Shown: piece after piece, positions 974 to 13,524 of the stretch
Numbering within the stretch: the stretch's first letter is position 1
Layout of the letters: each line of letters begins with the position of its first letter
Virus genome (UHGV): UHGV-0152507
Source: a virus
Strand: one strand, 5' to 3'
Length of the DNA stretch: 16,550 nt
Notes under the pieces: generated by a model
Databases searched by the model: none
The model's input: only the letters and a program-made list of their open reading frames with translations
Told to the model about the DNA's origin: nothing
Position numbers and translations under genes: made by a program

Positions 974-1996
974 TTAACTAACCCGCAAAACCCCCGCATT
1001 GCCTCCAGAGTGTGGACGCAATGTGGACATTCCACTAAGGGGATTATAACTCACCGCATCCAGTAAATAGTCCGGCGCGAAGTGAGCATAGGTCATAGTT
1101 TGCGATATGTCGGAATGACCAAGAATTCGTTGTAACGCGATAATATTTCCGCCCTTAATCATGAAGTGCGTGGCGAACGTATGACGTAGCGCGTGCGCGG
1201 CTTGCCCATCTGGAAGATTGGGCTTTGCTTCTTTCATGCGCAGACGGAAGGTTTTATAGCTCACGCGGAACAGTCTTCCCGATTCCTGATGTTTCACTAT
1301 TTTTGCAATGTCGTCAGATATGGGGACCACACGCCGATCTCCGTTTTTAGTGATCGTAAACATCACCCTGTTACCGACAATGTTTTCCGCTTTAAGCTGG
1401 TAGGCTTCACCCCATCGAGCACCGGTAGCAAGCAGCAGAACGGCGATGCGGTAGTAATCACCTGAGCACAGGGATAGCAGCCGGTTTACTTCCGACTCAG
1501 TGAAATACGACATTTCCGTTTTTGGCTCTTTCAGCGCTGAAATTGCTGTTACCGGGTTTTCACCGTGAAACTCATCAATTTCGGCCATAGCTTTAAACAC
1601 ACCACTAAGTGCAAACAGGTCATGATTTATCGTTGAAGCCTTGATCCCTTGCTCCAGCCTATATGCCCGGTAATCAATAAGACATCGCGCATCAATCTGG
1701 TAAATCATGGGATCCCCCATATCGTGGCAAATACAGTTAACAGCACTAAGCCTGCGGTTTGCGTAGTTCTTATTCCGTCCGATTAACTGCCACCATAACG
1801 CGATAAATTCGCTTAGTTTTCGCTTATCAGCCGGTCTATTTAAAAAATCATGGTTCTGATACTTGGCAATAATGCTTCGCTCAAAAGCGTGCGCATCTGC
1901 CTTTCTCTCAAACTTCCGCCGAATGCGCTTTCCGTCGCGCCCGCGCGGCCTGACATCCACTTCATAGCGACCATCTTCGAGTTTCTTAACGGACAT
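974..1996 (-). CDS. int: Tyrosine integrase, P2 Int-like
   Basis: N-terminus MSVKKLEDGRYEVDVRPRGRDGKRIRRKF closely resembles P2 Int. C-terminal catalytic motifs HALRHTFATHF and LGHSDISQTMTYAHF (tyrosine nucleophile). Start chosen at ATG 1996 with SD GGAGGG 7 nt upstream, rather than the TTG at 2011 in the ORF track. Confidence 0.9.
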   Translation of the reverse strand: MSVKKLEDGRYEVDVRPRGRDGKRIRRKFERKADAHAFERSIIAKYQNHDFLNRPADKRKLSEFIALWWQLIGRNKNYANRRLSAVNCICHDMGDPMIYQIDARCLIDYRAYRLEQGIKASTINHDLFALSGVFKAMAEIDEFHGENPVTAISALKEPKTEMSYFTESEVNRLLSLCSGDYYRIAVLLLATGARWGEAYQLKAENIVGNRVMFTITKNGDRRVVPISDDIAKIVKHQESGRLFRVSYKTFRLRMKEAKPNLPDGQAAHALRHTFATHFMIKGGNIIALQRILGHSDISQTMTYAHFAPDYLLDAVSYNPLSGMSTLRPHSGGNAGVLRVS

Positions 1997-2065
1997 AAGA
2001 AAACCCTCCAACAGTCAGATCACTATCCTGGTAACAAATAGTGAAAATGTAATGTTTATATAATG

Positions 2066-2368
2066 TTAACCAGTCTTTTTCCCGGAGGGGTCTGATTGAA
2101 TTTCGTCTTGCCCATTGTGTGCGAGAGCCGGTGCTATTTGGCCTCGGCTCGGATCTGTACGGTCGTACATGAACCAATCCTGATACTTATGGAATCGGGG
2201 ATGACCAAAGAGTTTGATCGCAGCATCTAATGACATTTTTGATTTGCCTAATTCATATCCATTATAGGTTACGGGATTTACTCCAATTAAATCAGCAACT
2301 TGTTTCGATCTAAGTCTTTCAGAGTCTCTTATCAATTGAAGCTTTTCACTTTGGCACATTGACTTCAT
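2066..2368 (-). CDS. C: Immunity repressor, P2 C-like
   Basis: 100 aa. C-terminal half SRGQIAPALAHNGQDEIQSDPSGKKTG matches the P2 C tail (QIAPALAHFGQ...SGQKTG as recalled). N-terminal HTH region is similar. Lies upstream of and co-oriented with int, as in P2. Confidence 0.85.
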   Translation of the reverse strand: MKSMCQSEKLQLIRDSERLRSKQVADLIGVNPVTYNGYELGKSKMSLDAAIKLFGHPRFHKYQDWFMYDRTDPSRGQIAPALAHNGQDEIQSDPSGKKTG

Positions 2369-2403
2369 CTATCTATTCTCTTATCGTCTATCTAAATAGA
2401 TAC
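2366..2403. promoter_or_regulatory. Candidate repressor operator in the divergent C / early promoter region
   Basis: Direct 8-bp repeats TCTATCTA at 2368..2375 and 2387..2394 (19 bp apart). The second is part of the palindrome TATCTA-AA-TAGATA (2389..2402). P2 C is known to bind direct repeats about two helical turns apart at Pe. Confidence 0.4.
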
Positions 2404-2487: not shown

Positions 2488-2949
2488 ATGAAAGAAATCC
2501 GAGAAAACGAATTAAATGCGAGATCTCAGTATTTACGTCAGTTTCCGTTAGATGGTGCTCGCGTCGCACGAATCTGCAAGATGACAGAAGCGCAAGCAAA
2601 CGCTATTCGCGATATGAACACCGACGAACTGCAAAAGCAGGTTTTCGTTACACCTGTTGAATTTGCATATCTGACGGGCCGGACTCTTAAGTCAGTACGT
2701 AACTTAATGGATCGTGCTCAGTTACCGGTCCACCGCGAAGGGATGCCGGGTTCCAAACGTCCTAAGCGTTTCATCATGCTGCAAGAGTATTGGGACGCCG
2801 TAGCACACTGCCGCGCACTAATTACCCCAGAAGAAAAGCACTACATCGATCGTCTGATGCGCGACAAGAAAACATATCGCCGCGTAACTGGTAACAATCA
2901 TCAGACGCATACGCGCACAAGCCGCAATTCAGCAAGGGCTGTCGCATGA
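2488..2949 (+). CDS. cox: Cox-like excisionase/early regulator with N- and C-terminal extensions
   Basis: Internal segment PVEFAYLTGRTLKSVRNLMDRAQLPV aligns with P2 Cox (EFAKLIGKSTGAVRRMIDKGKLPV as recalled). First gene of the rightward operon; strong SD GAAGGAG 7 nt before ATG 2488. At 153 aa it is longer than P2 Cox (91 aa); a later start at the in-frame ATG near 2581 is possible. Confidence 0.7.
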   Translation: MKEIRENELNARSQYLRQFPLDGARVARICKMTEAQANAIRDMNTDELQKQVFVTPVEFAYLTGRTLKSVRNLMDRAQLPVHREGMPGSKRPKRFIMLQEYWDAVAHCRALITPEEKHYIDRLMRDKKTYRRVTGNNHQTHTRTSRNSARAVA

Positions 2950-3404
2950 AAAACAGCAAATCAGTAAACGAACTTATTTCCGCTGTGAATGAGTTTTTGC
3001 GTAACAGCAACCCAGAGCGCTTGATCGATAATGGCATTCACGAAGCCTTATGCAACCTCGTTGATGCCGTAAGCCAGCAACAAGAAGAAATCGACTCCCT
3101 GCTGGAACGGCTGAATGCGCATAGCCCCGTTAATAGCGCGATAAAGGAAGAATCCGGTACTGTATTTCGCCGCCGCTATTACCGCAATGGTGTTCACGCG
3201 GGAAATGTTTATTTCCGAATTGAAGCGTTTGAAGGGATTAAAAGTTGGGCAGAAGAACTAAGGGCTGATTTTGAATCTTGTCTTAACGATTTTATTTCAC
3301 GACTTCACCCTGAACACCGTGCTTGCTTCGTTTCTACAGTAATAAGTCGCGCCCACAGTTTGACGTCGGAAGAGAAAGCGGAGTGGGAGCGACTTCAGAA
3401 GTAA
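2946..3404 (+). CDS. Hypothetical early protein carrying a portal-like FRRRYY-NG-HAG motif
   Basis: 152-aa ORF; ATG overlaps the cox stop (ATGA at 2946..2949). Contains TVFRRRYYRNGVHAGNVYF, which matches TIFRRRYYNNGAHMGFILY in this prophage's portal and the corresponding P2 Q segment as recalled. Confidence 0.7.
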   Translation: MKNSKSVNELISAVNEFLRNSNPERLIDNGIHEALCNLVDAVSQQQEEIDSLLERLNAHSPVNSAIKEESGTVFRRRYYRNGVHAGNVYFRIEAFEGIKSWAEELRADFESCLNDFISRLHPEHRACFVSTVISRAHSLTSEEKAEWERLQK

Positions 3405-3777: not shown

Positions 3778-3999
3778 ATGGACTTAACACAATGCCCTTC
3801 ACTTGCCAGCCTGCTAACCCACGGCCAGCAGATCACCCACCGTCAGCATCAACGCGGCTGGATTGAAACCCCGGACGGGCGTTTCTTCCAGCCTAAAGCA
3901 GCAGATGTTCAATTTATTAAAAACTGCCGTTTACCGTTTATGTCGCGCCCGCGTAATAAGCGCCGCTGGTTTTCCCGCTTAATGGGTATCTTCGCGTAG
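3778..3999 (+). CDS. Hypothetical early protein (73 aa)
   Basis: ATG 3778 preceded by GGAG with a 6-nt spacer. The longer form from ATG 3706 lacks a convincing SD. No recognisable motif. Confidence 0.5.
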   Translation: MDLTQCPSLASLLTHGQQITHRQHQRGWIETPDGRFFQPKAADVQFIKNCRLPFMSRPRNKRRWFSRLMGIFA

Positions 4000-5495: not shown

Positions 5496-6125
5496 ATGAG
5501 AAAAACACACGAATTAAAGATTTGGCCGGAGTTTTTTCAACCTGTTATGGACCGCGTGAAATACGCTGAATTGCGCCTAAATGATCGCGACTATAGCGCG
5601 GGCGACGTTTTGTTTTTGCGGGAGTTTTTACCCGCTAGCGGCAAATATTCGGGCAGCTATAACGTAGTAATAATATCTCATGTCGCTGATGTATCGGCGT
5701 TTATGCCGGGGTACGTCCTGCTTAGTTTCACTTCTTTCGTTACGCGCGGCGCTAACTGGCCTTTCCATAAGCCAACTACAGTGGAGGCTGCTGTAACTGC
5801 GGAAGATACTGGTTTTCTTTCGGCGCTTGTCGCCTGCGAGCCTCCCTGTAGCGTGATTCACCAAATGGCACGCCGACTGCTTGATGAACATCCATCGCTT
5901 CCAGTGTCCGAAAAATCTGATCTGTTGCCATGCCCCTTTTGCGGTGAAGCGGCTTTCTTTGACTCTATTTTTGATTACCAGTCAGAAACGCGTGTTTATG
6001 CCCCGTCTTGTACGGAGTGCTCATGCGAATTGATGGACGGCCCGATCATTAACAAATATGGGCGCGGTTGGTATGCCTCAAAGCAGGATGCCGCCGAAGC
6101 CTGGAATAAAAGGCGCTCGCAATGA
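5496..6125 (+). CDS. Two-domain protein: N-terminal DUF3850-like (ASCH/PUA-like) domain fused to a C-terminal Lar-family restriction-alleviation-like domain
   Basis: N-terminus MRKTHELKIWPEFFQPVMDRVKYAELRLNDRDYSAGDVLFLREF matches the DUF3850 hallmark as recalled. C-terminus LPCPFCGEAAFFD...SCTECSC...AAEAWNKRR matches the Lar-family pattern (CPFCG ... C-x2-C ... AWNRR). SD GAGGGA before ATG 5496. Stop overlaps the next start (ATGA at 6122..6125). Confidence 0.8.
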   Translation: MRKTHELKIWPEFFQPVMDRVKYAELRLNDRDYSAGDVLFLREFLPASGKYSGSYNVVIISHVADVSAFMPGYVLLSFTSFVTRGANWPFHKPTTVEAAVTAEDTGFLSALVACEPPCSVIHQMARRLLDEHPSLPVSEKSDLLPCPFCGEAAFFDSIFDYQSETRVYAPSCTECSCELMDGPIINKYGRGWYASKQDAAEAWNKRRSQ

Positions 6126-7126
6126 CTGCCTATTACAACGAAATCGATCCATATGCAGCACAGTGGCTGCGCAACCTCATTGATGCCGGGCATATTGCGC
6201 CAGGCATTGTTGATACCCGTTCAATTGAGGATGTAACCCCCAATGACCTTAAAGGCTTTACTCAATGTCACTTCTTTGCCGGGATCGGTGTGTGGTCATA
6301 TGCCCTGCGTCTTGTGGGCTGGCCGGACGACAAACCGATCTGGACTGGATCCTGCCCATGCCAGCCTTTCAGCCCGGCAGGCAAAGCAACTGGGTTTGAT
6401 GACGAGCGGCACTTATGGCCCGCCTTTCATTGGCTCATTGCTCAGTGCCGCCCTGTCGTTGTCGCTGGCGAGCAATCTGGAAGCGCTAACGCGAACGTCT
6501 GGCTCGACCTTGTACAAACTGACATGGAAAGCCTGGGCTATGCCTTCGGGGCGGTCGCGTTTCCGTCTGCGAGCGTCGGTGCGCCACACATCTGGGACAG
6601 AGCTTACTGGGTGGCCGACACCAACGGCGAGCGCATGGAAACACCCTGGAAACCAGGGGAGGCAGGGAGGCTTGAATTTGCAAACGGCCACAGCATTAGC
6701 TGGGTGGCCGACACCAACAACGCAGAGCAACAACCAAATCTCAGGAGTTGGAGCTGCTGCAGATCACCCGAAGCGCGGGACAACTTTGGGCGGGGCTGCT
6801 CAGCTGTCGGGGTGGCCGACACCAGCTTCAAGGGACGGCAAGGGGGGGTATCAGGGCGGGAGGATACGCAACGGGAAGCTGTCGACGGACACGCTGGATG
6901 TGACGGCGCAAATTGCGGGACCGGTCCGGTTAACGGTTTCTGGCGATCTGCTGACTGGCTGTATTGCCGGGATGGAAACTGGAGGCCAGTTAAACCCGGA
7001 CTTAAGCCGCTGGTTGATGGGGTTACCGGACGAGTGGGAAAAATCCGCGCCTACGGAAACGCTATCAACGTTGAAGCTGCAACAGCGTTCATAAAGGCTT
7101 ATATGATGGGGGCGTCAAATGTCTGA
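6122..7126 (+). CDS. Dcm-like DNA cytosine-5 methyltransferase, apparently frame-disrupted or frame-variable
   Basis: Annotated frame has FFAGIGVW (motif I-like), catalytic PCQ at 6356..6364, RPVVVAGEQ (motif VI-like), LESLGY, GAPHIWDRAYWVA (motif VIII-like) and YGNAINVEAATAFI (motif X, 7052..7093). The motif IX-like LNPDLSRWLMGLPDEW is only in the overlapping +1 frame (6990..7037). Confidence 0.7.
   Translation: MTAYYNEIDPYAAQWLRNLIDAGHIAPGIVDTRSIEDVTPNDLKGFTQCHFFAGIGVWSYALRLVGWPDDKPIWTGSCPCQPFSPAGKATGFDDERHLWPAFHWLIAQCRPVVVAGEQSGSANANVWLDLVQTDMESLGYAFGAVAFPSASVGAPHIWDRAYWVADTNGERMETPWKPGEAGRLEFANGHSISWVADTNNAEQQPNLRSWSCCRSPEARDNFGRGCSAVGVADTSFKGRQGGVSGREDTQREAVDGHAGCDGANCGTGPVNGFWRSADWLYCRDGNWRPVKPGLKPLVDGVTGRVGKIRAYGNAINVEAATAFIKAYMMGASNV
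6607..6826. repeat. Three copies of a 19-nt element inside the methyltransferase gene
   Basis: CTGGGTGGCCGACACCAAC at 6607..6625 and 6700..6718; CGGGGTGGCCGACACCAGC at 6808..6826. They encode GWPTP in the +1 frame and (W/G)VADT in the annotated frame. Confidence 0.7.
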
Positions 7127-9737
7127 CGCCGCCTTTGCATGGCCCTGGAACGCGCCGCGCCCAGCTGTTGGCCTGTACACCTACGAACCGAAAAAAATCG
7201 CCCCGCTTGCCGGGGCGGTGGCGCATCATCCTGCCGTAAAAAAACACATCGATCACATATTCAAACGCGCCGGTTACAACCCTGACGACGTTCGCGACCG
7301 TGACGCGCTGATCCAGACGCTGGACAGGTACGAACCGTGCGGCCTGCCACTGGCCGCCCAACAAAATATCATCCGGCAGGAAAGTGCAGCCGCGAAAGCT
7401 GCGGCGGCCGCCTGGGCCAATACGCCGGAAGGTGTCGAAGCGCGTTTGTTGTCTGAGCCGTTCTTCATCCGCGAAGTCTGGCGCAAAAAAATTGAATGGT
7501 TACGGGCCAACCGTGAAACCAGACACACCAATGATTTTCTTATGGGGACCGTGAAAAAATCATTGCTGCGTCTTGATGTTGTGCGCACAAGGCAAGGTGT
7601 TTCGCCTGATATCACCGGCGAACTGGCCGCGTACTGGTTCGGGCGCTGGCAACGGCTGGCTGATTTCACAAAGCGGGAAGCCCTAAGCGCCGCTAATGAG
7701 ATCGCCAGCCGCATGGCTGAAATGCTGGGGACGGAATGCGAAGCCTTGGGACGAAATGTTTCAGACATGAACGTCGAAGAACTGGACTGGCTTTATTGCC
7801 ACCTGGGCCGTGAAATGCTGGCGCTTCGCATTGTGCCGCCTGCATGGTATGCGCCGTGGGAACGCGAGCGCATATGCACGGCCATTTTGCGTATGGCTTC
7901 GCCTGACTGGTGGGGGCGCAAAATCTGGCGCTTGCGTTGTGACTGGCGCGAAAACCAGCTGCGTGCTGTTGGCGCGGTAAATAAAAAAGCGCATCCGTAT
8001 ATCAGTGCATCAAGCCTGATGGAATGGCAGGAACAGCGACGTAAAAACCGTAATTTCTTCAAAAGTCATGAACTGGTAGACGAAGACGGCAACGTTTCGT
8101 CGCTTGAGGACATGATTAACAAATCCACGTCTAACCCTGCAATTCGTCGTCATGAGCTTATGGCCCGTATGGCTGGCGTGGAGCTTGTCGCCCAGAGTCG
8201 TGGCGATGTTGGCATCTTCCTGACCATCACTTGCCCGTCGAAATATCACGGCAATATTGCGTCCGGCCACCATAACGCAAAATGGAACTACGACACGGTT
8301 GCACAGGCGCAACGCTATTTATGCCGCGTATGGAACCGGGCAACCGCCAAACTGAAACGCGAAGATTTGCGCCCTTACGGCTTCCGCGTCGCCGAGCCGC
8401 ATCACGACGGAACGCCACACTGGCACGCCCTGCTATTTATGCCGCAGGCAGAAGTTAAAGCCACGGTAGCGATTTTGCGTGATTACTTTGTCAAAGAGGA
8501 CCGCGCCGAACTGGGGCGTAATACCGGTGCTCGCTTCAAGTCCAAAAAAATGGACCCACGGAAAGGGTCAGCAACGGCGTATATCGCGAAATACATTTCG
8601 AAGAATATCGACGGCCATGCGCTGGCCGGTGAACTGGACGACGAAAGCGGCAAGCCGCTGAATGAAACAGCCAAATATGCAATGGCCTGGGCATCACTTC
8701 ACCGCATCCGTCAGTTTCAGCCCATCGGACAGCCGCCCATATCGGTTTACCGCGAGCTGCGCAAACTGAGCAATCAGATCACGACGCGCCAGAAAATTGA
8801 CAATACCTTCAAGCGCGGTGCGCCGTTGCTTGTGGATCCTGCTATGGATGCGGTTTGCGCCGCTGCGGATGTCGGGTGCTTTGCTACCTACATCATCCGC
8901 CAGGGTGGTGTTTTGATCCCGCGAGAAAACTATGTCGTCCGTCTGGCCTATCAGCCAGCTGATGAAATGAATGCTTATTGTGAGATCCCCGAAAAGGTAT
9001 TCGGGGTCTGGTCGCCACGTCTGGGGGATGCCTCCCGCATTTGCACCCGTCTGGTTAAGTGGAAAATCCGCGCCAAATCCAAAGCCACCACCGGGGCCAA
9101 AAACGGCCCCGGTTTGGGGGTTGACCTTTTGCCGTCGCCAACCGGCGACGCTTGGAGTTCTGTCAATAACTCTACGGAAGACGAAAAAATCACCGATTTT
9201 TCGCCTGATGTGGAAGGGGTGACAGGAGGAGCAGAAGGGGAAATCGGCGATGTTGAAAACATGGACCAACCGACACGGCGAAAATTGATGCGGCGACTAC
9301 GTGAAACACCATTCAAAAGGCAGCAAAACGGATCACCTTATGAGCCAGGCAGCGAATTAGATGTCGCCTGGCGTTCTGCCGTGGAAAAAACCGAGGCCAG
9401 ATCGGCGGCAGAAAAGGCCAAACGGGCGGCGCTTGCCCCTGCTGTTGCCAGCCTGCTGGCAGATGCGGCGTTGTATTCGGTTGAGATTTCAGAGATTCAG
9501 GCCGTTTCGCTGTTAATGGGGAGTTGTCTGGAGATTGGCGGCAAAGTTTATCGGGCCAGTGCTGACGGCCAGTTGATAACGCGTCAATTACCCGACGAGT
9601 CACGGACGGTGAATAAATTATGGGAACGTCTGCGGGATAACCACGGCATAGATGCCACGCGCCTGCGGTTCGACCCTGCGGGCGAATACGCAAAGATGTT
9701 AACGAAAGCAATTAATTGCGCTGACAAAAAGGGGTGA
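7119..9737 (+). CDS. A: Rolling-circle replication initiator endonuclease, P2 gene A-like
   Basis: 872 aa. HUH-type motif GTPHWHALLF and paired-tyrosine motif YIAKYISKN (compare phiX174 gpA YVAKYVNK). N-terminal AWPWNAPRPAVG resembles P2 A. Position after the early accessory genes is as in P2. Confidence 0.9.
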   Translation: MSDAAFAWPWNAPRPAVGLYTYEPKKIAPLAGAVAHHPAVKKHIDHIFKRAGYNPDDVRDRDALIQTLDRYEPCGLPLAAQQNIIRQESAAAKAAAAAWANTPEGVEARLLSEPFFIREVWRKKIEWLRANRETRHTNDFLMGTVKKSLLRLDVVRTRQGVSPDITGELAAYWFGRWQRLADFTKREALSAANEIASRMAEMLGTECEALGRNVSDMNVEELDWLYCHLGREMLALRIVPPAWYAPWERERICTAILRMASPDWWGRKIWRLRCDWRENQLRAVGAVNKKAHPYISASSLMEWQEQRRKNRNFFKSHELVDEDGNVSSLEDMINKSTSNPAIRRHELMARMAGVELVAQSRGDVGIFLTITCPSKYHGNIASGHHNAKWNYDTVAQAQRYLCRVWNRATAKLKREDLRPYGFRVAEPHHDGTPHWHALLFMPQAEVKATVAILRDYFVKEDRAELGRNTGARFKSKKMDPRKGSATAYIAKYISKNIDGHALAGELDDESGKPLNETAKYAMAWASLHRIRQFQPIGQPPISVYRELRKLSNQITTRQKIDNTFKRGAPLLVDPAMDAVCAAADVGCFATYIIRQGGVLIPRENYVVRLAYQPADEMNAYCEIPEKVFGVWSPRLGDASRICTRLVKWKIRAKSKATTGAKNGPGLGVDLLPSPTGDAWSSVNNSTEDEKITDFSPDVEGVTGGAEGEIGDVENMDQPTRRKLMRRLRETPFKRQQNGSPYEPGSELDVAWRSAVEKTEARSAAEKAKRAALAPAVASLLADAALYSVEISEIQAVSLLMGSCLEIGGKVYRASADGQLITRQLPDESRTVNKLWERLRDNHGIDATRLRFDPAGEYAKMLTKAINCADKKG

Positions 9738-9739
9738 GC

Positions 9740-9955
9740 ATGAAAATTATTATTGGGCATAAGAAGCAAAATAATCAGTTAGATGTAGTTGTAAGTGCCT
9801 GGTGTTGGGAAGTGGAGCAACTCAATAAGCTGACAAAAGAAGTGATCCGGGTGTTTTTTGTGGAAGGTGAAGCAACGTGCGTGCCGTCGTCATTTCTTCT
9901 GCGTCGTAAATACAAGGTAAGCGGGCCGGAGAGTTCTAAATCTTCCACCAGATAA
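9740..9955 (+). CDS. Hypothetical small protein (71 aa) immediately after A, at the P2 orf91 position
   Basis: ATG 9740 sits 3 nt after the A stop, with AAGGGG upstream. AT-rich. No motif recognised. Confidence 0.45.
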   Translation: MKIIIGHKKQNNQLDVVVSAWCWEVEQLNKLTKEVIRVFFVEGEATCVPSSFLLRRKYKVSGPESSKSSTR

Positions 9956-10066
9956 AACAGTCAATCGCGAAAACCTGCGTTACTTGTTGCGCGGGTTTTC
10001 ACGATTCTGCGGGTGCGGGCGGCAAAGAGTCCGCATGTTTTGATTCTAAAAGTGAGATAAGAAAAA

Positions 10067-10282
10067 ATGAAAGCGAGTTATATCAGTTACTTTGAAGGTT
10101 ACGATGCTCTTGGCCGAATGATTTTTAATGGCAATGGTTCATGTTCGGTTGAATACGACGAGACTGAGGGAATCGATCCTGAAGGGTTGCAGGTCGCGCA
10201 TTGTGAGCATCTTTTAAAGGTGGCCCAGGCCAAAAATAACAGTGTCGTGAGAGTCACGATTAATAACATGATGAAACTGTAA
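10067..10282 (+). CDS. Hypothetical small acidic protein (71 aa), cargo at the P2 tin/old position
   Basis: Stand-alone ORF in an AT-rich stretch, followed by a stem-loop terminator. Weak SD. No motif recognised. Confidence 0.5.
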   Translation: MKASYISYFEGYDALGRMIFNGNGSCSVEYDETEGIDPEGLQVAHCEHLLKVAQAKNNSVVRVTINNMMKL

Positions 10283-10309
10283 TTGTTATCAATTCCAATA
10301 GTTAAAAAT

Positions 10310-10326
10310 GCCCGCTTTATGCGGGC
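10310..10326. terminator. Bidirectional rho-independent terminator between convergent genes
   Basis: Stem GCCCGC / GCGGGC with a 5-nt loop. Followed on the plus strand by TTCGTTTAT and on the minus strand by ATTTTTA. Lies 5 nt beyond the minus-strand zinc-finger gene stop. Confidence 0.55.
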
Positions 10327-10331
10327 TTCGT

Positions 10332-10658: not shown

Positions 10659-11716
10659 TTTTCGCCCTTTTCGACGGTGATTGCCGGGATATCTACATCA
10701 AAATGCAGGTGCAAATGTGGGGGGATCTCCGGGTCATTGTTGACGCCGTTCATTAGCTTGCGCTGCAACGGGATAACTTCATCCTTGCGATAGGTTGTGC
10801 GGGCGGTTTCAGGGTTGCCCATTACCGCGCCATTGGTCGGGATGATACCGGCCAGCCCTGCGGGGAAACGGTGAGCGGTAAAGATATCCTGCGCGGTGAT
10901 CCCTTTGATGTTGGCAAATTCATCCTTTGCGCTGACTTCGCCCACTGGCATGATTTTAACCCCTTCCGGGTCGCCCTTCGGGATGTTGATAAACATATTG
11001 CGGAAGTTACCCAGCCCTTTGGACTGGGCGATCTTCTCTTTGATTTCGTTTTCCATTTCCAGCGTCAGATTCGGATCGCTGGTATAGAGAATAAAGCCCA
11101 TATGCGCCCCGTTATTGTAGTAACGGCGCCGGAAGATGGTTGCCTCACTGTTGAGTAACACCGAATGGATGCCGCCGATATAGTCAGGCAGGCCATATAC
11201 CTGCTGGCGCGGGTCGTACATTTTAAAGAAAACGATGTCTTCCGGGTCATAGATAAGCGCTGGCCCTTCCTGCAAAACAGCAAACGAGCCGTCTTTCCGG
11301 CAGCGCAGGTACAGCGACGGCAGCGGCAGCAGGTCGATCACTTCCCCGAATACGTTACGAATTTTCAGGATAGCGACGTCACCAAACAGCAGGTAATCAA
11401 AGACAGCCTGTTCGACCTGGTCAGGCGTCAGGCCGCCGCCAATATAGCCACCGGCCACCATATTGCGCCGCGCATACAGCACCCCACCATGCTGGCCGTT
11501 AAGGTTCGGCAACTGGGCCAGCGCCAGGCGATCAATCGGGAGTCGCCAGTGGTCATATTCATTGTCATACCAGATATTGTGATAATCCGTGCCGGTCGTC
11601 AGGATGGGTTCGGGTTCGCCAAATGTGATCACGCTTCCGCGCCCTGGCGTGAAGGTTTCAACCTTGCTGCCGGTCATGGACCTGAATTTTTTATTATTAC
11701 GCTGTTTCTTTGTCAT
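10655..11716 (-). CDS. Q: Portal protein, P2 Q-like
   Basis: 353 aa. Segments LPDYIGGIHSVLLNSEATIFRRRYYNNGAHMGFILY and KGLGNFRNMFINIP resemble P2 Q (LPEYLSALNSAWLNESATLFRRKYYENGAHAGYIMY, KGRGNFKNLFLYAP as recalled). Confidence 0.9.
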   Translation of the reverse strand: MTKKQRNNKKFRSMTGSKVETFTPGRGSVITFGEPEPILTTGTDYHNIWYDNEYDHWRLPIDRLALAQLPNLNGQHGGVLYARRNMVAGGYIGGGLTPDQVEQAVFDYLLFGDVAILKIRNVFGEVIDLLPLPSLYLRCRKDGSFAVLQEGPALIYDPEDIVFFKMYDPRQQVYGLPDYIGGIHSVLLNSEATIFRRRYYNNGAHMGFILYTSDPNLTLEMENEIKEKIAQSKGLGNFRNMFINIPKGDPEGVKIMPVGEVSAKDEFANIKGITAQDIFTAHRFPAGLAGIIPTNGAVMGNPETARTTYRKDEVIPLQRKLMNGVNNDPEIPPHLHLHFDVDIPAITVEKGEK

Positions 11717-13524
11717 GCTGCTTTCCCAAAGTACCAGCCCGATGGGCGGTCATATTCGTGATCGATAGGTTCGTTAATTACGGCGTGCGAGATAGCGAAG
11801 AAAACATCTGCATGGCCGGTCGCGTCTGAACGTTCAGCAACAAACGTCAGCGCGTTGCCGCTGTTGGTTGTCGTGCGCCGGATAGCCATAAAGCTGGCCG
11901 GAATTTCGACGCGCTCTTTGTTCGTTTCGTCTACGGCGTCTTTTGCCCATTCGATGCGCTTACGCTCGACAACGTCGATCATCTTCATTACCAGACGGTT
12001 TTTGCTTTCGACGCTGTAAAGAATCGGTGTGGCTTCGCGTGGTGCAAACTTGCTGACCAGGTCATAAACGCCCTTACCTATGCCGGTTGTATCGATCCCG
12101 ATGTAAGTGATGTTAAAGCGGCGCATAAGTTGCTTTATCTGGTCGGCCTGCCAGCTGAAGTTAAAGCCCTGCCATTGCCAGACGGCCAGCACGCGGAAGC
12201 GCTCGCCGTCCTCTATGGGGGGCGCGATTAACACAAAAGTGGAGTTGTCGCCGGATCGTGACGGGTCAAAGCCTGCCCATACTTCGCGATTGCCGAAGGG
12301 CCGCGCAGCAGTCAGATCAAAGTCGCCCCATGTGGCCCGGTCCACTTCGCAACCGACAAGCGCGGAGAACTTGAACACCGCGTCCTTGCTGTCAACAAAC
12401 TGGCACATGTAGAGCATGGCAAACGCGGTCGGGCTGTATTTGTTGCGCAGTCGTTCAATATCGACAAGCGCCCCGAGGCCGCCTTCGATGGCGTCTTCCA
12501 TTGTGATGATATAGCGCCAGATCTGGTCCGGGCAGAGAATGCCCTGGCGCATTTCGCTTTCTTTCGGGAACGTCACACCTTTGCGTTTCGGGTCGTCCCC
12601 GCGCCAGGCTTCGCCAGTCCAGACCGGGTAAGCCTGGTGCGTTTTCGCGCTGGGCGTCGAAAAGTAGGTCGTGCGGTATTTGTTGTGCGTCGCCATTGCG
12701 CTGGCAACTTCGTGCAGGCGCGTGAATTTCGGGATCCAGAAAACCTCATCACCATACAGGTGGCCGTTAAAGCCCTGCGCGGTGCTGGCGTTCGTGGACA
12801 AAAAGCGCAGTATTGCGCCGTTGCTGAGGCGGATATTTTTACCCGTCAGCGTCACGCCGAAATGGTTCTGAGCGATCTGGACGATGTATTCACGGAAGAT
12901 TTCAGACTGGGAGCGGCTTGCAGAGAAAAAGACCTGGTTATCACCGGTAATGACAGCATCTTCGAATGCCTCCCAGGCGAAATAATAGGTCATGCCGACC
13001 TGTCGGCTTTTCAGAATGAAGCGCCAGTCTTCGCCTTTATGTTCGCGGCAGTGCAGCTGGTACTCGAAGAGATGTTCCCGCGCCCAGGTGTCGAGCATTT
13101 CCGCTGTAATACCGGAAACGTCGTTTTTCTTATACCGGCGCTTTCTTTCCCCTGGTTCCCCGCCTGCGCTGCTGAGGCAGTACCCTTCACCATCATAAGC
13201 CGCTTTCTGGGCCTGAATTTCTGCCAGCTTTTCGGCGTGCTTGTTGCGCTGCGCCATGAGTTTCACATGGTGAGCAATCAGATCGCGCAGTTCCTCCAGT
13301 TCCAGCGCTGTTTTTTTCTCGCGGCGGGAGAGCTGGTCGATACGGCGGGCGATGACATTTTCCACCGATTCAACAGGCAGCAGTGATGCCCACTTCCCGA
13401 CGTCAGCCCAGTGGTAAATTGTACGCGGTGGAATATTCAGTTCCTGCGCAATATCTTTCGGCGTCCAGCTTTTTATATAAAGCGTGCGGGCCGCTTCTTT
13501 TAATTCATCGGAATATTTAGCCAT
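11713..13524 (-). CDS. P: Terminase large (ATPase) subunit, P2 P-like
   Basis: 603 aa, upstream of and overlapping Q (ATGA), as in the P2 Q-P operon. N-terminal HTH-like region and terminase ATPase-like body. Call rests mainly on size and conserved gene order. Confidence 0.85.
   Translation of the reverse strand: MAKYSDELKEAARTLYIKSWTPKDIAQELNIPPRTIYHWADVGKWASLLPVESVENVIARRIDQLSRREKKTALELEELRDLIAHHVKLMAQRNKHAEKLAEIQAQKAAYDGEGYCLSSAGGEPGERKRRYKKNDVSGITAEMLDTWAREHLFEYQLHCREHKGEDWRFILKSRQVGMTYYFAWEAFEDAVITGDNQVFFSASRSQSEIFREYIVQIAQNHFGVTLTGKNIRLSNGAILRFLSTNASTAQGFNGHLYGDEVFWIPKFTRLHEVASAMATHNKYRTTYFSTPSAKTHQAYPVWTGEAWRGDDPKRKGVTFPKESEMRQGILCPDQIWRYIITMEDAIEGGLGALVDIERLRNKYSPTAFAMLYMCQFVDSKDAVFKFSALVGCEVDRATWGDFDLTAARPFGNREVWAGFDPSRSGDNSTFVLIAPPIEDGERFRVLAVWQWQGFNFSWQADQIKQLMRRFNITYIGIDTTGIGKGVYDLVSKFAPREATPILYSVESKNRLVMKMIDVVERKRIEWAKDAVDETNKERVEIPASFMAIRRTTTNSGNALTFVAERSDATGHADVFFAISHAVINEPIDHEYDRPSGWYFGKAA

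Follow-up and report, generated by a model that had tools for sequence, protein, structure and literature searches.

The DNA analysed here, a stretch of 16,550 nucleotides referred to throughout as the window, is a P2-like prophage whose integrase, C-type repressor and cox-like genes are followed by ORF152, the gene under study (Table 1). A sequence database search found an identical protein already on record (P0001). Downstream lie fil, a phrog_7428 gene, Dam and Dcm methylase genes, replication gene A (7119-9737) and ogr, and the late genes in the window are those of the portal, the large terminase (11713-13524), GpO, the capsid and the small terminase. A 283-aa plus-strand ORF (6243-7094), which is nested in an alternative frame within the cytosine-methylase gene (6122-7126), is probably a compositional artefact. 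The window prophage adjoins a haem-uptake operon; its Salmonella relatives use a cpxA-side site.

Table 1. Coordinates (window positions) of ORF152, its parts, its neighbours and the resident portal gene.
Feature	Position	Strand	Remarks
Integrase	974-2011	-	
C-type repressor	2066-2368	-	
Sigma-70 consensus-like sites, C/cox intergenic	2351..2387	+	Candidate early promoter; pattern scan only
cox-like gene	2488..2949	+	Weak matches: PF10743, E 0.013; phrog_575, phrog_272
ORF152	2946..3404	+	152 aa, accessory early-operon gene; from ORF list
N-module of ORF152, aa 1-60	2946..3125	+	Predicted helical
Portal-like segment of ORF152, aa 61-92	3126..3221	+	phrog_68, hhalign, portal HMM
Motif TVFRRRYYRNGVHAGNVYF, ORF152 aa 72-90	3159..3215	+	Family core Y79, G82, H84, G86, Y89
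Rest of ORF152 C-module, aa 93-152	3222..3401	+	Helices
Convergent ORF, 76 aa	3411..3641	-	100% aa identity in L001/L013; 58% beside P0143
Resident portal (Q homologue), 353 aa	10655..11716	-	PF04860, E 1.1e-13; phrog_68, E 2.5e-118
Portal signature TIFRRRYYNNGAHMGFILY, aa 193-211	11084..11140	-	Most conserved portal-family stretch

The cox-like gene and ORF152 overlap at ATGA (2946-2949), in which the TGA stop of the former overlaps the ATG of the latter, and AAGGG lies upstream of the ORF152 start. This overlap is the layout that would be expected of a translationally coupled early-operon gene, and it agrees with the initial annotation's naming of the product as an early protein. We infer early expression from gene position alone. 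The sigma-70 consensus-like sites occupy a position analogous to that of Pe of P2, and their score in the pattern scan was not above shuffle expectation. The cox-like product is 153 aa long and matches Cox families only faintly; the Cox proteins of relatives are 90-94 aa. ORF152 itself had no HTH or Cox family match in Pfam, PHROG or NCBIfam, unlike its Cox-like neighbour. The convergent 76-aa ORF, whose end is separated by 6 nt from the stop codon of ORF152, matched no family among the Pfam, PHROG, NCBIfam and PADLOC profiles. This ORF and the 3' half of ORF152 appear to travel together, and two of the related loci (L009 and L011) have unrelated small ORFs in its place.

The initial annotation had drawn attention to a likeness between the early protein and the prophage's own portal. 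Both peptides, TVFRRRYYRNGVHAGNVYF in ORF152 and TIFRRRYYNNGAHMGFILY in the resident portal, and the count of 11 identities in 19 residues, the FRRRYY hexapeptide included, were borne out by the sequences, and P2 Q does read LFRRKYYENGAHAGYIMY at the matching stretch, as the initial annotation had given it. The likeness was recovered by several types of search. BLASTP of ORF152 against the resident portal gave E 1e-6 (41% identity over 29 aa), and against the portals of P2 (Q), SW9 (186-like) and Burkholderia AP3 it gave E 2e-10 to 4e-10, with 44-50% identity over 44-50 aa. In hmmscan, aa 61-90 of ORF152 matched positions 181-210 of the P2-type portal family phrog_68 (E 1.3e-7), the sole match below E 0.1 among 38,880 PHROG families, and a portal HMM scored the segment at 30.6 bits. 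The profile-profile comparison with portals that had been proposed as a check was run with hhalign. The ORF152 family against 31 portals gave a probability of 94.8%, placing ORF152 61-92 on portal 182-213, and a more diverse family alignment raised this to 96.8% (E 2.6e-10, 43 columns), so that E ranged from 5.5e-8 to 2.6e-10 over both family alignments. In the 43-column alignment, the first helix after the ORF152 motif was paired with the portal helix that follows its motif, and the stretch of ORF152 that resembles portals is some 30-45 aa long, running into the next helix. Of 428 records returned by tblastn of ORF152 against 2.3 Gb of phage DNA, the matches listed (E<=3e-3) all fell on portal genes wherever the record was annotated; the hosts of these phages included Burkholderia, Klebsiella, Escherichia, Yersinia, Ralstonia, Vibrio and Salmonella.

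The match is short, the Pfam scan reported no Phage_portal (PF04860) match for ORF152, and two seemingly unrelated repeat proteins (P0131, P0134) also reached significance in the search of 1.8 billion proteins, all of which might point to a chance resemblance or a non-functional ORF. The two repeat proteins were considered as relatives and, on their sequences, judged unrelated, their scores being spread over 5-6 repeats. Against chance, three independent methods gave E values of 1e-7 to 1e-10, the portal PHROG was alone at that level, and Smith-Waterman scores of 78 and 99 compare with about 30 +/- 4.6 for shuffled sequences (maxima 61 and 58), so that none of 5000 shuffles reached them. The gene has moreover a dN/dS of 0.15-0.28 and a constant position in four genera. 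Chance is very improbable and is effectively excluded. The comparisons indicate that the portal-like segment is homologous to the most conserved segment of the portal.

That the segment arose from the resident portal gene by recent DNA duplication or by gene conversion was considered and ruled out. Differing synonymous codons are used at 9 of the 11 shared residues, and only 41 of 90 nucleotides agree over a wider stretch, which argues for conservation at the protein level, as the initial annotation had proposed. Its description of the motif as a copy from the portal holds in that the portal match is significant, but the segment is closer to P2/186-type portals than to the resident one, so that the phage's own portal is not what it copies. 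The simplest origin of the module would be a captured fragment of a portal, probably of P2/186 type, which was then long kept as an independent unit.

ORF152 is also not a whole degraded portal, a possibility ruled out by the lack of colinear similarity outside aa 47-96 or 61-104. With P2-family gpQ (PF04860, phrog_68) it has in common about 30-45 aa, of the pattern ..S.T.FRR.YY.NGAH.G..(Y), plus the next helix, and the portal signature F-R-R-x-Y-Y-x-N-G-A-H-x-G is present in it. However, gpQ is about 345 aa long, whereas ORF152, at 152 aa and with a low-confidence all-helical AF2 model, does not show the wing/stem/clip/crown fold of at least ~340 aa and lacks the wing beta-sheet, clip, tunnel loop and crown. 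TIGR01540, which describes full-length portals, scored 13.2 bits on ORF152 against a cut-off of 166. The gene for gpQ is a core gene beside the terminase; ORF152 is accessory and stands first after cox in the early operon, away from the late head genes and their large terminase. A second portal-like segment within the N-module, as a duplication, was considered and found unsupported (second HSP with AP3, E 5e-4, plus weak signals); the repeat signals there amounted to -0.7 bits with an HMM (E 0.023) and 7/21 residues in self-BLAST (E 0.11).

In the 31 portals compared, F195, R196, R197, Y200, N202, G203, H205, G207 and Y211 of the signature are invariant. The resident portal is of an NGAHMG subtype, only about 32% identical to P2/186-type portals. 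It carries a second, N-terminal element, NGQHGGVLYAR (aa 73-83, about nt 11468-11500 on the minus strand), which resembles both the portal's own signature and NGVHAGNVYFR of ORF152 and is conserved across the portal family. Among solved structures, sequence searches found nothing for ORF152 and no P2-type portal, and the only profile match was the HK97 portal 8cez. The portal-family profile set the signature on about aa 213-228 of 8cez (QRDFFANGAKSPQIL), followed by TEQQRSQVEENFKEIAG, upstream of the stem helix. In an AF2 model of the resident portal, the elements run as helix 179-192, loop 193-205, strand 206-212 and helix 219-231, and further on as two short strands, helices 263-283 and a long helix 302-326. 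The canonical order of a portal is wing, stem helix, clip, stem helix, tunnel loop and long wing helix (PMC10359639). From this topology and the element order of the model, we infer that the signature sits at the wing-stem junction and that the helix after it would be the outer stem helix. The portal monomer model has a pLDDT of 57 overall and below 50 at the motif (aa 169-209), and the ORF152 model has 64 overall, below 50 at its motif (aa 62-84) and about 70-76 in the N-module helices. Foldseek on the AF2 models confirmed only the portal fold of the portal. The 'KRRR' wing motif of the P22 portal was considered as the same element and set aside, since it is reportedly confined to large podovirus portals and equivalence could not be demonstrated.

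Relatives of ORF152 are few. An exhaustive HMMER search and a profile search brought the family to about 48 clusters out of 5.8 billion, which came from Salmonella, Citrobacter and Hafnia, and the family occurred in one of 185,579 species-representative genomes, that of Scandinavium, and in a few IMG/VR contigs. Close homologues (80-100% identity) were confined to a few Salmonella prophages and two metagenome contigs identical to the window; one homologue is frameshifted. At all loci examined, the gene order was int - C - cox - ORF152 family - convergent small ORF - fil or B, and the slot of the family, first after cox, was constant across four genera. P2 has no gene of the family; Orf78 occupies its slot. 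The DNA match of the window to phages SI7, SW3 and SW5 starts at about position 3790, downstream of ORF152. ORF152 falls within no Pfam, NCBIfam or PADLOC family, and PHROG has no family dedicated to it. The published hotspot of P2 is the A-Q region, and full-text literature searches found no description of the protein, of a portal mimic or of a variable locus beside cox; the cox-adjacent variable locus in P2-like phages is previously undescribed. The region from A to ogr/Q holds small ORFs only in the window (9734-10330), GmrSD and HEPN genes in L001 (16430-17981) and HicAB in L011 (16606-17222), and this differing cargo of the relatives fits the published P2 defence hotspot.

None of the outcomes that the initial annotation had listed as telling against its proposal was obtained. 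The ORF is kept in related prophages: dN/dS between ORF152 and three orthologues was 0.15-0.28, which indicated that the reading frame is under purifying selection, and the homologues always come first after cox. Its dN of 0.06-0.14 and dS of 0.22-0.65 are far above those of the flanking genes, whose dN is at most 0.012. In a sliding comparison with L001 and L013, nucleotide identity was 76-88% in the 5' part of ORF152 and 96-100% in the 3' part, a jump that puts a mosaic junction within ORF152 at about nt 3200, just past the motif. The cox genes of the window and of L001/L013 are unrelated. On these comparisons the family is rare, accessory and fast-diversifying, an arms-race-like profile.

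The invariant columns of the family are Y79, G82, H84, G86, Y89 and E104, and Y78, A85, G97 and I117 are nearly invariant. Of these, Y78, Y79, G82, H84 and G86 align with portal Y199, Y200, G203, H205 and G207, which are invariant or nearly so in the 31 portals, and the positions aligned with A85 and Y89 are not among the (nearly) invariant ones. The residues between the conserved columns diverge between the family and the portals. Comparison of the invariant columns thus gives Y-Y-x-N-G-x-H-x-G as the core common to both. The initial annotation had singled out FRRRYY; the hexapeptide is present in full, but the core of the family is YY.NGAHAG.(I/V)Y(Y/F), and the FRRR part varies by L, H and S (FRRS, FHRR, FRHS and LRRS among close homologues). 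Likewise, the signature it had described is present, but the resemblance extends over a module of about 30-45 aa, which recurs across differing architectures.

The family layout is a helical N-module (SVNE..VN..LR...AL..ADV..QQQEEID.L), a variable linker and a variable C-module, and about half of the members have the portal-like C-module. This C-module is portable, 45-60 aa long, and consists of the core, then (E/S).WGM, then an amphipathic helix; the two marks of the new family, this C-module and a position next to cox, are both found in ORF152. Diverged versions, Y.RN.Y.NGAHIGKICYGY and FFKSKYYINGAHAGSIVF, matched portals independently (P0147, P0150). The C-module stands alone in proteins of 60-98 aa (P0132, P0133, P0171 and L019 5944-6144), and in P0129 it follows a Cox-like HTH. 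The L019 example, from Scandinavium, is a minimal module of 66 aa (FYQNGAHAGNVYYHVDVWGMNSPKIEAEIERRL) directly after cox and is the smallest unit of the family. The N-module (consensus SVNELI..VN..LR....AL.NL.DA.SQQQEEIDSL.E) is kept across the family, even where the C-terminal module is without the portal-like core, and since some members have the N-module without the core, the function common to the family need not depend on the core. Other C-modules (P0156, P0160, P0162, P0166 and P0172) had no matches to head genes within the loci compared.

This exchange of C-modules for unrelated sequences in many members bears on the possibility that a co-opted portal fragment now serves as a mere folding or oligomerisation unit in a role unrelated to portals, for instance at the lysis-lysogeny switch together with Cox, in host takeover or in replication. 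The residues in common with portals (aromatics, N-G turn, H and G) would suit a local fold, and the apparent translational coupling of ORF152 to the cox-like gene and the fusion of P0129 to a Cox-like HTH point the same way. On the other hand, the diverged modules of P0147 and P0150 still score against portals, and a presumably dead GpO-N-like domain alongside the module (see below) would have to be a coincidence. We regard this as a doubtful explanation, yet a serious rival.

In two relatives, P0143 and P0144, the C-module lies behind a domain like the N-terminal domain of GpO (PF05929; phrog_11933, E 2e-56; phrog_73, E 4e-9), where ORF152 itself has its helical N-module; phrog_11933 is annotated 'head maturation protease'. 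Alignment with three GpO proteins showed that the His region is absent and that V/A replaces the serine of TS(A/M)E. If the His and Ser positions that we take, from the P2 GpO literature, to be those of the catalytic triad are correct, the domain would be catalytically dead. The scaffolding C-terminal half of GpO is missing from both proteins. GpO-N-like fusions of 222-241 aa, from Salmonella and Citrobacter prophages, occupy the cox-downstream slot at L006 (10001-10669), L007, L008 and L021 (1992-2717). P0143 and P0144 would thus combine two head-assembly look-alikes within one early accessory protein.

Such fusions are what might be found if the module were a modulator of head assembly that docks on the portal subunit, the GpO scaffold/protease or the terminase. 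It could act as a cap, timer or dominant-negative that delays premature portal oligomerisation, or it could disrupt the capsid assembly of a rival P2-like phage or of a P4-like satellite that draws on the same components. GpO is believed to recruit portals and, through the protease that forms its N-terminal domain, to cleave gpQ (PMC7552001); the GpO-N-like fusion agrees with this presumed interaction of GpO and portal. The segment is also where portals are most conserved across their family, and it lies at the inferred wing-stem junction (8cez alignment and element order of the model), and in a Hafnia prophage with a P2-type resident portal the early protein matches its own portal at 12 of 18 residues. 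Several points argue against such a role. The gene is rare and accessory and therefore not required for assembly, and the module does not vary along with the type of resident portal: it reads NGAHAG, the P2-type consensus, whichever portal type is resident (NGAHMG in the window). A dominant-negative in the lytic cycle would hit the phage's own portal, for example in the Hafnia phage, and should the lysogen keep its early operon repressed, as P2 lysogens do, superinfecting phages would not be excluded. A role in assembly is possible, but we hold it to be rather unlikely.

Known small accessory proteins that act on head-assembly proteins of a helper, namely P4 Sid, SaPI CpmA/CpmB and Ppi, provide the model for an assembly modulator. 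These are satellite-encoded and are not known to be fragments of their target protein; ORF152, unlike them, is a gene of the P2-like phage. P2 Orf78 and 186 CII occupy the same slot as ORF152, first downstream of cox/apl, but ORF152 comes with a convergent small ORF, unlike those genes, and Pfam, PHROG and NCBIfam profile scans gave no family link between ORF152 and Orf78 or CII. A possible functional analogy, as a defence inhibitor, is offered by phage DSAD1, which counteracts DSR2, a system that recognises phage tail tube proteins (PMC11087589). As a candidate inhibitor, ORF152 appears to carry a homologous piece of the trigger itself. DSAD1 is not known to be derived from the trigger protein of DSR2.

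Our preferred reading, to which we give a probability of roughly 30%, is that ORF152 is a portal-derived mimic made early as a decoy for portal-sensing immunity. Immune receptors that sense portals exist, namely Avs4 and Avs11 (PMC12803255) and RAZR (PMC13017515), and sensors related to them bind unassembled subunits at conserved assembly interfaces (PMC12803255). The copy of a portal segment suggests, without proving it, an imitation of the unassembled portal. ORF152 would be expressed as the first gene after cox, ahead of the late genes. Its module, which would span the end of the wing helix, F-R-R-x-Y-Y-x-N-G-A-H-x-G, a beta strand and then the (stem) helix, would display a surface of the unassembled portal subunit and so occupy a protein that recognises the portal. 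The likeliest target, by a small margin, would be an immune receptor that senses portals and belongs to the host or to a co-resident element, one like Avs4, Avs11 or RAZR; for such a receptor ORF152 would be a pre-emptive decoy or a competitive inhibitor. The variable N-modules, helical or dead GpO-like, may add avidity or a second specificity.

That the module is still related to portals in its role is suggested by its invariant residues, its occurrence as a stand-alone unit, its recombination in one slot and its fusion to a GpO-like domain. The functional idea of the initial annotation, a mimic or decoy, is plausible, and the fusions to a presumably dead GpO-like domain lend it indirect support. 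The rare, accessory and fast-diversifying character of the gene, its early position and the lack of co-variation with the resident portal give a decoy a slight edge over a modulator of assembly, and a constant NGAHAG whatever the resident portal is easier to square with a reader of portals in general than with co-evolution of module and resident portal. Two considerations weigh against mimicry: Avs-type sensors are described as reading whole folds, for which a 45-aa piece may be insufficient, and the same residues may have been conserved simply because the local fold requires them. PADLOC-DB and NCBIfam gave no defence or anti-defence link for ORF152, and PADLOC gave none for the convergent ORF. 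A broader version of the decoy reading, in which a swappable early cassette of head-protein look-alikes, namely the portal signature segment and in some alleles a dead GpO protease domain, is made ahead of the real late proteins and blinds or saturates receptors of the Avs4, Avs11 or RAZR type that sense unassembled portal or head proteins, is unlikely on what these sequences offer.

Immune systems that detect conserved virion proteins, the portal among them, have proved widespread, and it is much less understood how temperate phages escape such sensing without mutating essential proteins. The module of ORF152 is a testable candidate for mimicry of a trigger or for deliberate interference with head assembly, and proteins of its kind may be phage accessory proteins that act by such mimicry or interference. 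If neither holds, the module would be a fragment of a structural gene that was captured and long kept as an independent domain. If the decoy reading is true, these proteins would be, to our knowledge, the first anti-defence decoys made of fragments of the trigger.
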